From the NCBI GenBank assembly GCA_944350445.1, contig CALVOW010000004.1, forward strand, positions 1,154 to 65,153: DNA of 64,000 nt. The letters run 5' to 3'. Position numbers and translations under genes: made by a program. Positions 30,875-33,701 of this stretch are shown here, piece after piece. The notes below the pieces were generated by a model that saw only the letters and a program-made list of their open reading frames with translations, searched no databases and was not told the origin of the DNA. Numbering within the stretch: the stretch's first letter is position 1; each line of letters opens with the position of its first letter. The stretch is from an uncultured Bacilli bacterium (GTDB taxonomy: Bacteria > Bacillota_I > Bacilli_A > RF39 > UBA660).

Positions 30875-31465
30875 TTGAAATTTAAAAAGAAGCAAATCAA
30901 TTCGTTAGTCTTATATTTTTTTACACTCTTTTATGTAATTAGTTTATTATTTATGATTGGAACTAGTAATAATAAAGATTTAGTAGTTGTTAGTAATATA
31001 CATACAGTTAAAGCAGTAGAATCTTCAAGAGTGGCAATGATAAATGAAAAAATAACTAATAATAATCAAGAAGAATTTATAAAAGTATTTTCAACCGAAG
31101 AAATAAAATTAAATCAAGGTAAGAAATTAGAATTTGTTGGAACCTTAACAGGATATGGTCCAGATTGTGTAGGTTGTAGTGGTAAAGTTGCTTGTGAACC
31201 TTATCAAAATGTAAAAAATGGCAATATATATTATCAAGATTCTTATTATGGAAAAATTAGAATTTTAGCAGCTGATGAAAGTATTCCTTGTGGTAGCATT
31301 ATAAAAATATCTAATTATTTTGATAGTGATTTTTATGGGATAGTTTTAGATAGAGGAAGTGCTGTTGTAGGATTGACAATGGATCTTTTATATGAAAGTG
31401 AAAAAAGTCTTGGTTTGGGACGTGTACATAATATTAATTTTCAAATAGAAAGATGGGGCTATTAA
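30875..31465 (+). CDS. Membrane-anchored 3D-domain (MltA/YabE/YuiC-like double-psi beta-barrel) protein
   Basis: 196 aa with a TTG start and an AGAGGTGG RBS. It has an N-terminal TM, then GTLTGYGPDCVGCSG...RILAAD...GSIIKI...GIVLDRGSAV, typical of 3D domains. It sits at the B. subtilis yabE position. Confidence 0.7.
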   Translation: MKFKKKQINSLVLYFFTLFYVISLLFMIGTSNNKDLVVVSNIHTVKAVESSRVAMINEKITNNNQEEFIKVFSTEEIKLNQGKKLEFVGTLTGYGPDCVGCSGKVACEPYQNVKNGNIYYQDSYYGKIRILAADESIPCGSIIKISNYFDSDFYGIVLDRGSAVVGLTMDLLYESEKSLGLGRVHNINFQIERWGY

Positions 31466-31621
31466 CTCCATTTTTTTATTTGTTAAAAAATATAAAAAAT
31501 AAAAATTAATTATGATAGTTATTTTACTAATTTGTAAATTTATGAATTAAAAAACTTTAAAAAGGTATTGTAAATTAAAAAAATATATGATATATTTTTA
31601 ACATAAGGAGGATATGAAAAA

Positions 31622-32266
31622 ATGGAAAATAATTCTAAGCAAGCCGTTTTATCAATTGTTGGTATAGCAATTTTAGTAATAGCAGTAGTAGGAGTGTCAT
31701 TTGCGTTCTTTACTTATTCAAAAACAGGAACTACAAATAACGTAATTACTACTGGTAAAATTTCTTTTGCATACAACGAAGTAAACAATATAACATTAAC
31801 CAATCAATTTCCACAAACACCAGCTGAAGGAAAAACAAATGAAGCTTTCAAATTTAATGTAACTGGTACATTACCTGCTACTTCAAATGCAGTTAATTAC
31901 ACAGTAACAGCTGTTGCTGGTAATACAGAAGCTGATAAAACGAGAATGCAAGATAGTGACATTAATGTATATGTAACAGCTACTAATGGTGGTACAGTAT
32001 CAGGTCAATATGGTAGTGCAAATGGTGCTGTTGCTGGTAATAGTGCATCTGGATTCCAAATTGCATCTGGATCAATTCCTGCTGATGGATCACAACATCA
32101 ACATGACTTTACATTAACTATGTGGGTAAATGAATCTGTTACTATTTCTGATACTGATACTGGTGCTGATTATTGTGCTAGTGAAGAAGCATGTCAAGGC
32201 GATCGTACAGTTTATAGTGATTTATATTATTCACTAAAAGTAAATGTATCAGCAACTGACCAATAA
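31622..32266 (+). CDS. Secreted/anchored T/S/G/A-rich protein, TasA/camelysin-like (paralogue A)
   Basis: 214 aa with an AAGGAGGA RBS. The N-terminus KQAVLSIVGIAILVIAVVGVSFAFFTYSKTG resembles SipW-type signal peptides (G-T-x-A-x-F-T-D class). It is followed by ITTGKISF...ITLTNQFP, as in the mature TasA N-terminus. The functional call is tentative. Confidence 0.6.
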   Translation: MENNSKQAVLSIVGIAILVIAVVGVSFAFFTYSKTGTTNNVITTGKISFAYNEVNNITLTNQFPQTPAEGKTNEAFKFNVTGTLPATSNAVNYTVTAVAGNTEADKTRMQDSDINVYVTATNGGTVSGQYGSANGAVAGNSASGFQIASGSIPADGSQHQHDFTLTMWVNESVTISDTDTGADYCASEEACQGDRTVYSDLYYSLKVNVSATDQ

Positions 32267-32280
32267 TAAATATAAAATTG

Positions 32281-32302
32281 AAGACCAATTGGTCTTTTTT
32301 TT
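32281..32302 (+). terminator. Rho-independent terminator after paralogue A
   Basis: AAGACCAATTGGTCTT palindrome followed by a T-run. Confidence 0.75.
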
Positions 32303-32572
32303 AAATTTTTTATATATTTCAATTTTCTATATTTATCATTTTGAATTATATATTTTATAATCAAAATATTGTATTTACCTAGAATATTATTTTAATATTT
32401 TATTAAATTTTTTTGATTTAATAAAACATATTAATTTATATTCTTTTTTTAATATTTATTTATGACTTTAAAAATTTATCATTATTGTCAAAAATTAATG
32501 AAAATATCAAAAAAATAGTTGTAAAAATTTTATTAATATGCTATTATCATTATTGTAAGGAGGATATGAATT

Positions 32573-33238
32573 ATGAATGGAAATTCATCAAAGCAAGTTT
32601 TACTATCGGTTTTAGGAATTGCTGTTTTAGTTGTAGCTGTTGTTGGGGTGTCATTTGCGTTCTTTACTTATTCGAAAGCGGGAACTAAAAATAATACTTT
32701 AACAACTGGTTCAATTTTCTTTAATTTTACTGAGGGACAAGCAATTACTTTAACTAACCAATTTCCAATAGATGATACAAAAGGCTCAACTTTAACAGCT
32801 GCTGAGGGAGACAATGCTGTATTAACTTTTAGTGTTGTTGGATACGATGGTTCAGGAACGGGAATTGATTATACTATAACTGCTAATCAAGGTAATTCAA
32901 TTGCTGAAAAAACAAGATTTAAAGATAGTGAAATTAAATTGTTATTAACTACAACAGCAAGCGGTGTAACTAATAATTTTTCATCTGCAAAAGCAGTAGG
33001 CACTGATGGTTCACTTGCTACTGGTGTAACTCTTGCGACTGGAAAAATTACAGCAACTGATAGTGATTCTCAACAAACTGATACTTATACATTAAGAATG
33101 TGGATTACAGAAGATGTTGTAAGTATAGATGACAATGATACACCTGCTGATGGTGATAGTGTTTATACATCAACAGAATTTGGTAATTTATATTATTCAT
33201 TAAGATTAAAAGTAGACGCTAATACATCTGGTGCTTAA
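32573..33238 (+). CDS. Secreted/anchored T/S/G/A-rich protein, TasA/camelysin-like (paralogue B)
   Basis: 221 aa with the same RBS context. The N-terminal ~60 aa closely resemble paralogue A (VGVSFAFFTYSK identical, with a 26-nt identical DNA stretch). Shared C-terminal blocks are LRMWITED / LTMWVNE and LYYSLRLKV / LYYSLKVNV. Confidence 0.6.
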   Translation: MNGNSSKQVLLSVLGIAVLVVAVVGVSFAFFTYSKAGTKNNTLTTGSIFFNFTEGQAITLTNQFPIDDTKGSTLTAAEGDNAVLTFSVVGYDGSGTGIDYTITANQGNSIAEKTRFKDSEIKLLLTTTASGVTNNFSSAKAVGTDGSLATGVTLATGKITATDSDSQQTDTYTLRMWITEDVVSIDDNDTPADGDSVYTSTEFGNLYYSLRLKVDANTSGA

Positions 33239-33244
33239 TAATTA

Positions 33245-33271
33245 GGCTTTGAATTTCAAAGTCTTTTTTTT
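33245..33271 (+). terminator. Putative terminator after paralogue B
   Basis: CTTTGAA / TTCAAAG inverted repeat followed by T8. Confidence 0.5.
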
Positions 33272-33385
33272 GTCTTTATGTGTCAAATTATTATAAATTG
33301 TCAAATTTTTACAAAAAATAATTGCTTTTTAAAAAAAACTAGTATATCATTATAATAGAACATGGAGTTCAAAAGGAGGATACAT

Positions 33386-33679
33386 ATGAAAATAACATCA
33401 GTAGATGTGCGAAAATTTGAAAAAGAAGGATCTCGTATGAAAGGACGTGCAACTGTTCAATTAGATGATTGTTTTGTTGTACGTGATATTCGTATTATTG
33501 ATGGTGATAATGGATTATTTATTGCTATGCCAAGCAAGAAGGTTCCAGGAGGTCATAAAGATATTGCTCATCCAATCAATCGTGAAACTAGAAAAATGTT
33601 TGAAGATGCAATTTTTGAAGCTTATGAAAAAGCTGAACTAGAAGAACCTACTAATAATGATAATGAAGAAGAAGAATAA
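33386..33679 (+). CDS. spoVG: Septation/sporulation regulator SpoVG
   Basis: MKITSVDVRKFEKEGSRMKGRATVQLDDCFVVRDIRIIDGDNGLFIAMPSKK is the canonical SpoVG fold sequence. The ATG at 33386 follows an AAAGGAGGA RBS; the ORF-track start at 33362 is unlikely. Confidence 0.92.
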   Translation: MKITSVDVRKFEKEGSRMKGRATVQLDDCFVVRDIRIIDGDNGLFIAMPSKKVPGGHKDIAHPINRETRKMFEDAIFEAYEKAELEEPTNNDNEEEE

Positions 33680-33701
33680 AAGACCAATTGGTCTTTTTTT
33701 T
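33680..33701 (+). terminator. Rho-independent terminator after spoVG
   Basis: The same AAGACCAATTGGTCTT palindrome plus T-run as at 32281. Confidence 0.75.

Follow-up and report, generated by a model that had tools for sequence, protein, structure and literature searches.

Two tandem genes, famA (31622..32266) and famB (32573..33238), lie in the 64,000-nucleotide stretch of DNA from an uncultured gut Bacilli bacterium with a small genome that was analyzed here as one window; all features given with window coordinates are on its forward strand. FamA is a 214-amino-acid (aa) TasA-superfamily-like secreted β-sandwich protein of A type, and FamB is its 221-aa paralogue of B type. On balance, we lean modestly towards reading the pair as two conserved kinds of short subunit from a TasA/camelysin branch that is very divergent and specific to this lineage, subunits that would be cut by a SipW-type signal peptidase and would form a strand-donating fibre or coat. 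A first-pass annotation, made from the letters of the DNA, had proposed TasA/camelysin-like fibre subunits at this place. That interpretation finds support in the presence of a sipW gene in the genome, in its linkage to the family, in the cleavage box, in a bridging homologue and in the β-sandwich fold.

FamA and FamB are 44% identical over their full length (BLASTP, E 5e-43), and the blocks that had been quoted from their N- and C-terminal parts (VGVSFAFFTYSK[TA]GT, TTG.I.F, ITLTNQFP, L[TR]MW[VI].E and LYYSL[KR]) are all common to both. FamA starts with a predicted SipW-type signal peptide of residues 1-28 (31622..31705), to which a motif census and a helix at residues 5-26 in the structure models point; the corresponding signal peptide of FamB spans residues 1-29 (32573-32659). 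In both proteins we infer a cut at VSFA|FFTY, within the box G-V-S-F-A|F-F-T-Y. The consensus of 81 unique N-termini is G(P5)-V-[ST]-[FY]-A(P1)|F-[FY](P2')-[TN]-Y-S-[KR]-x-G, with G at P5 and A at P1 in 76 each, S or T at P3 in 80, and an aromatic F or Y at P2 in every one of the 81 and at P2' in 78. Column identity within the box is 0.94 among 89 homologues. The family box has the form G-x-[ST]-aromatic-A|x-aromatic of SipW-cognate signals, and it agrees with the TasA/CalY box at P5, P3, P2, P1, P2' and P3'. In TasA, the phenylalanine at P2' blocks LepB, for which the protein is a poor substrate, while SipW handles it (PMC10269814). The resemblance of the N-terminus to the SipW-cognate class, asserted in the first-pass annotation, extends to a TasA-type box including the aromatic P2'.

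The assembly (1.34 Mb, 46 contigs, 94% complete) encodes a single signal peptidase of the endoplasmic reticulum (ER)/archaeal or SipW type, on contig C21 (C21:954-1439). It scores 93 bits against TIGR02228 (cut-off 51.85), 76.6 bits against the Bacillus SipW equivalog model, which is below the cut-off of that model, and only 20.9 bits against the bacterial-type model; its motifs are SMEP, THR and GDN. Since one separate bacterial-type signal peptidase I is encoded on C15, the ER-type enzyme is the specialized one of the two. The remark that no sipW occurs nearby holds for the examined part of the window; for the genome as a whole it does not. Taken together, FamA and FamB are probably cut by a dedicated SipW-type peptidase encoded elsewhere in the genome.

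The peptidase gene on C21 sits in an operon that encodes, in this order, a 254-aa family member, SipW, a 183-aa protein, and membrane proteins of 228 and 164 aa. The 254-aa protein directly upstream of sipW belongs to the family (hhalign probability 95.5%, E 1.4e-8) and carries a long acidic cytoplasmic tail. The 183-aa protein 3' of sipW has a GTYA|WY box; it was considered as a further family member and rejected, as its hhalign probability of 3% is not significant. The 228-aa protein is a single-pass and the 164-aa protein a multi-pass membrane protein, and neither matched a known family. C21 begins 105 nt upstream of the first gene of the cluster, so that the upstream side is unseen.

The linkage between the peptidase and the family is conserved in relatives. 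Among 47 related loci, mostly from metagenome-assembled genomes of uncultured Bacilli from rabbit, Hadza and rumen samples, about 20 preserve, completely or in part, the gene order metG-tatD-3D-[1 to 6 family genes]-spoVG-yabP-yabQ-divIC-tilS-ftsH. In four of the loci, from more distantly related organisms (L041, L048, L058 and L060), the order is 3D-Fam-Fam-Fam-SipW, with tatD 5' in all four and metG in three. L060 contains an unbroken run of genes for two short subunits, the member with the tail, SipW and homologues of the 183-aa, 228-aa and 164-aa proteins, and after these ksgA and yabG; the cluster that is contiguous there is split in this genome. In a census that took in 151 genomes from 86 genera of this order, 0.6-1.6 Mb in size, the family was present in 76, and a single genome may carry up to 19 or more copies of it. 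Short family genes stand directly upstream of sipW (<1.5 kb, same strand) in at least 25 of the order's genomes. An ER-type peptidase is thus genetically linked to its putative substrates on C21, in the four loci and in these genomes. In the same census, many of the genomes have several SipW-type peptidases, up to 8. Many of the SipW matches are open reading frames (ORFs) of ~380-405 aa that cover only the first ~135 positions of the model, which suggests a longer, conserved fusion protein of SipW-like type.

The array itself is also shared. The two genes had been described as inserted into an otherwise core junction; instead, an array of one to six copies is kept at this junction across the lineage, and it is therefore a stable, expandable feature and not a recent insertion. 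In a maximum-likelihood tree, a FamA clade (support 100/98) stands apart from a FamB clade (98/96), and genes of both types occur in the same genomes, A before B. The duplication is thus old and both copies have been kept, which suggests distinct roles for FamA and FamB. Two contigs labelled as Bacteroides helcogenes (L029) and Muribaculaceae (L035) also carry this Bacilli-specific family, the latter with a gene of FamA type and then one of FamB type; both contigs are probably mis-binned.

The relationship to the camelysin family PF12389 becomes visible through intermediate sequences. FamA and FamB reach no Pfam or NCBIfam threshold; a match to Pox_A14 (E 0.02-0.05) was discarded because it covers the hydrophobic helix only, as was one to EF0750_LPXTG (E 3.7e-4), which lies far below the cut-off. 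A word-indexed search returned 334 homologues, all unnamed and without Pfam assignment, and an exhaustive profile search over 1.84 billion representatives returned 4,415 clusters at E <= 1e-3 (1,843 at E <= 1e-10). On the N-terminal module of the family, PF12389 alone recurs among the Pfam matches, in 7 of 133 representatives at E < 0.01 (best 3.5e-4), and a paralogue on C31 of this genome reaches 18-19.9 bits on that model. The bridge is a protein from a related locus (L049:11852-12553), which passes the PF12389 cut-off of 22.5 with 28.9 bits and reaches 18.2 bits on the signal model TIGR04088, for which 19 are needed. By hhalign, this protein matches both the present family (probability 96.9%, E 1.8e-10) and A2, a PF12389-positive family from relatives of the same class (93.8%, E 1.7e-7). 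Of the matches that the A2 profile picked out from among all ORFs in the genome and in the loci, nearly all bore the module, among them a 654-aa protein on C15 of this genome (E 2.5e-7) and a FamB-type protein over its full length (E 8e-4). These comparisons argue for homology of FamA and FamB with the PF12389 family that is transitive, through the bridging protein.

Searches of the Protein Data Bank (PDB) by sequence, with a single sequence and with the family profile, found only archaeal type IV pilins (6nav, 8tib, 6w8x and 8fjs, E 0.06-7). The A2 profile itself finds no TasA chain there, and such searches therefore cannot decide the question. Another genome of the same class (G009, locus L063) has a small cassette whose genes encode a membrane protein of 167 aa, a SipW-like peptidase, a 221-aa PF12389 protein and a longer protein whose N-terminus is TasA-like. 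With this classical cassette, canonical and divergent forms coexist within the class. A search of the literature found no paper on this family or on a matrix fibre in this lineage.

Structure prediction with AlphaFold2 (AF2) yields a confident β-sandwich, with a mean predicted local distance difference test (pLDDT) of 84 and a predicted template-modelling score (pTM) of 0.73 for the full length, and 87 and 0.83 for the mature domain modelled with 53 diverse sequences. The models comprise the helix of residues 5-26, a disordered linker and a sandwich of eight to nine strands with pLDDT >90. In both Foldseek runs against the PDB, the top match is the TasA-like archaeal pilin AbpA (7ueg; probability 0.94 and 0.97, TM 0.27-0.36, E 1.6e-3 to 6.6e-3, 13-16% identity), followed by the donor-strand pilins CfaB, FimA, PapE, FimI and CupB6, of the chaperone-usher kind; the TasA fibre 8aur ranks 18 and 11.

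The mature N-terminus deserves particular attention. Its most conserved segment, FFTYSKTGTTNNVITTGKISFAY (residues 29-51; 31706..31774), is a candidate donor strand on grounds of conservation and modelling. Column identity at residues 29-45 is 0.61 versus 0.24-0.36 for the remaining mature protein in the 89 homologues, and this most conserved segment is also the one that AF2 places worst, with pLDDT <50 up to residue 41 or 43 and ~55-75 for the next strands. In TasA, the donor strand consists of the first 11 mature residues (PMC9674648). Recent gene conversion was considered as a cause of the conserved 5' ends and set aside, because DNA identity peaks at only 77-83%.

From these elements a mechanism can be proposed. 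The pre-proteins would be exported by Sec and held in the membrane by the long hydrophobic signal peptide. With aromatic residues at P1' and P2', the box would be poor for the ordinary signal peptidase, and the single ER-type enzyme encoded on C21 would make the cut, freeing the new N-terminus FFTYSK..TTG.I.F. The freed strand could then insert into the β-sandwich of a neighbouring subunit and give rise to a chaperone-free surface fibre or coat like those of TasA and AbpA, while the C21 operon may supply an anchor or nucleator and assembly factors. Fibre formation by strand donation from FamA and FamB is, on this basis, plausible.

Several observations weigh against this interpretation. Of the two models by which the first-pass annotation proposed to recognize the proteins, neither matches FamA or FamB: PF12389 (gathering threshold 22.5 bits) gives no match even at E <= 10, and TIGR04088 gives none for either protein or anywhere in the genome. 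Direct hhalign alignment of the family with A2 covers only residues 1-53, at a probability of 4.4%. As sipW is present in 138 of the 151 genomes of the order, its co-occurrence with the family (75 of 76 family-positive versus 63 of 75 family-negative genomes) is by itself weak evidence. The AlphaFold monomer bears out the anticipated β-sandwich with AbpA as its top match, but the similarity is weak (TM ~0.35): no PDB entry is matched at E <= 1e-3, and the TM values of 0.27-0.44 are below the usual same-fold level. The list of predicted-structure matches is enriched for donor-strand filaments, yet it contains no same-fold match by the usual criteria. Furthermore, the h-region of the signal peptide (column identity 0.62) shows about double the conservation of the mature body, which is unusual for a cleaved signal and would fit a retained helix. 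Finally, the occurrence of the module on many large adhesin-like proteins fits export or anchoring equally well as polymerization.

These larger proteins are numerous. The module is N-terminal in at least 20 ORFs of this 1.34-Mb genome, ranging from ~180 to 860 aa, and heads at least 18 larger surface proteins. In the long members among the 133 family representatives scanned, the passenger domains are of adhesin type (DUF6273, BspA leucine-rich repeats, Ig-like and cadherin-like domains). About eight closely similar module proteins of ~860 aa form a group of their own (C17:18335-20902, C7:33851-36427, C7:42577-45162, C28:5337-7919, C6:44299-46869, C24:157-2724, C27:15243-17609 and C16:1-2346); the one full-length copy that was scanned gave no Pfam match. 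Several of these genes are located at contig ends and are probably what breaks the assembly there. Three proteins of 634-654 aa (C15:10733-12694, C1:58380-60281 and C9:13152-15083) have a more TasA-like N-terminal domain; the C9 protein matches DUF6273, and its C-terminal repeat sequence is common to the C15 and C1 proteins.

The arrangement of the locus provides further context. On the left, the array is bordered by a 3D-domain (yabE-like) gene for an exported protein (30875..31465), whose Pfam 3D match (E 0.004) is below threshold; a 3D-domain gene also lies 5' of the array in most related loci that retain their upstream flank. On the right stands spoVG (33362..33679; PF04026, E 6e-31), which is the right border in close relatives as well, as synteny indicates. 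A consensus scan places promoter-like sites with a TG extension before famA (TTGTAA-17-TATATT, 31568..31596) and before famB (TTGTAA-17-TATTAT, 32519..32547); such sites are not above chance in number in the region, and the two matches are suggestive only. Strong ribosome-binding sites, read from the sequence as AAGGAGGA, precede both genes (31605..31612 and 32557..32564). Each gene is followed by an intrinsic terminator, for famA the hairpin GAAGACCAATTGGTCTTT and a T-run (32280..32297) and for famB a hairpin and T-run (33244..33264), and terminator-like sites in the region number 5 against 0.6 expected from shuffles. The earlier description of two tandem paralogous genes, each with its own terminator, agrees with these ORFs and hairpins. 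The genes are thus predicted to be transcribed separately, from their own transcription signals. The palindromic hairpin AAGACCAATTGGTCTT, which forms the terminator 3' of famA (32280-32297), occurs again 3' of spoVG (33678-33697).

Explanations diverge on whether the subunits polymerize. A serious alternative, although we would assign it a distinctly lower probability, is that the module is a lineage-specific domain for export and surface presentation, consisting of a SipW-cut signal and a non-polymerizing β-sandwich stalk close to the membrane or wall. FamA and FamB would then be abundant stand-alone surface or coat proteins, monomeric or in a loose layer, and the large paralogues ordinary adhesins. 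The spread of the module over at least 20 ORFs of very different length, the adhesin-type passengers and the weakness of the fold matches to fibre subunits all speak in its favour. What it leaves harder to explain are the two old short types in tandem arrays of one to six copies and the layout in the window, where each gene has its own promoter-like site and terminator, as is typical of bulk structural subunits. The first mature residues, nearly invariant and poorly placed in the monomer models, and the enrichment of donor-strand filaments among the top fold matches point in the same direction. A more far-reaching version of the strand-donating fibre, which we regard as rather doubtful, would make the module a universal polymerization handle, with FamA and FamB forming a chaperone-free and sortase-free donor-strand shaft into which the ~18 larger paralogues, with their DUF6273, LRR, Ig-like and other passenger domains, plug via the same strand. 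If true, this would amount to a modular fibre that displays interchangeable adhesins on gut Bacilli of very small genome, and the frozen signal peptide would reflect recognition by the dedicated SipW and a platform of two membrane proteins for assembly.

Other explanations concern the fate of the N-terminal helix and the cell type in which the proteins act. Retention of the helix, as a membrane anchor or as a filament core in the manner of archaeal type IV pilins, would account for the conservation of the h-region (0.62, against 0.24-0.36 in the body). It would also suit the family-profile PDB matches, which are exclusively to archaeal type IV pilins (helix plus β domain, E 0.06-0.5), and the pilC-pilD pair in the genome. 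We nevertheless consider it very improbable, as a class III signal is missing: the proteins lack a G|F..E box, and in the paralogues the n- and h-regions do not meet at a small residue. The feature that all paralogues keep unchanged is a box of signal-peptidase-I type where the helix ends on its C-terminal side. Moreover, the pilin matches are not significant, and it is with an ER-type signal peptidase gene, and not with pilD, that the linkage is conserved. Identity with type IV pilins was accordingly rejected: the leaders (MENNSKQ-AVLS, and MKNRKK-IISI in paralogues) lack a prepilin box of the form G|FxxxE or [KR]G|, there is no significant similarity, and the PDB matches were judged to reflect a common helix-plus-β composition. 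The genes in question, a pilC (GspF-like) gene and, after it, one for a prepilin peptidase, lie on C29 (L062 1-1962) and indicate a type IV pilus or a competence pseudopilus system.

Least probable of the explanations weighed here is a spore-associated role, as coat or appendage, in place of vegetative surface fibres. The neighbours spoVG and yabP, yabQ and, in relatives, yabG are linked to sporulation, and TasA itself was initially described as a protein associated with spores (PMC9674648). The promoter-like sites look like σA-type sites with an extended -10 element. Besides, metG-tatD-yabE...spoVG is a conserved housekeeping block in Firmicutes, which counts against drawing a sporulation function from the neighbourhood.

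The reading of FamA and FamB as short subunits of a divergent TasA/camelysin branch has consequences beyond this locus. In Bacillus biofilms the protein scaffold consists mainly of TasA-type fibres, and the bundling pili of archaea are built from distant homologues. The present family is a large branch without a Pfam model (4,415 representative clusters), concentrated in uncultured gut and rumen Bacilli with genomes of 0.6-1.6 Mb, genetically tied to a dedicated SipW-type peptidase, and with its module reused as the leader of adhesin-like proteins. If the proteins polymerize, they would probably be the principal structure on the surface of these organisms and offer them a way to attach to host or particles. 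For annotation, a new family model that bridges to PF12389 is justified.

Among known systems, the CoCoPALM clusters combine SipW-type peptidases and TasA-like paralogues with McrBC-type GTPases (Bell et al., eLife 2024, PMC11090510), and they share with the present case that, in Bacillota, genes of the signal peptidase family stand next to those for putative subunits of pili or fibres. Membership of the C21 cluster in this group was rejected, as no McrB/McrC-like gene occurs in the first 9 kb of C21 and the AAA_5 matches of the genome all lie off that contig; the C21 cluster is a minimal SipW cluster. The bundling pilin AbpA of Pyrobaculum calidifontis (7UEG), which is related to TasA only by sensitive comparisons (PMC9245690), is likewise a small subunit of jelly-roll or sandwich fold that is secreted and processed by signal peptidase I, and in AlphaFold monomer models its donor strand folds back on its own subunit. 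It differs in being archaeal, in its 13-16% identity and in having no dedicated peptidase in its locus. BsaA-type proteins are reported to have intermolecular isopeptide bonds. In Clostridium perfringens, the matrix or pilus-like system sipW-bsaA is described as a Firmicute SipW-linked operon of secreted, polymerizing subunits (PMC11580942); its likeness to the present system is one of description.

A close parallel is TasA of Bacillus subtilis (tapA-sipW-tasA; PDB 8AUR), together with TasA and CalY of B. cereus, all of PF12389. Differences are evident, since FamA and FamB stay below the PF12389 and TIGR04088 thresholds and are connected to the family only transitively via the bridging protein, their box has V instead of G at P4 and Y instead of D at P4', and the fold match reaches only TM ~0.35. 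The main subunit genes are monocistronic and unlinked from sipW in this genome, the sipW operon includes two extra membrane proteins of no known family, and many large proteins of adhesin-like type carry the N-terminal module as a fusion too. On the other hand, the proteins agree with TasA in their length (~200-260 aa), in the long signal peptide that ends in G-x-T/S-aromatic-A|x-F with an aromatic P2', in the x-[ST]-G-x-[LI]-x-[LF] strand that comes next and in the predicted β-sandwich body. They also share with TasA the existence of several paralogous subunits and the linkage to a dedicated ER-type peptidase, beside which a divergent family member takes a TapA-like position.

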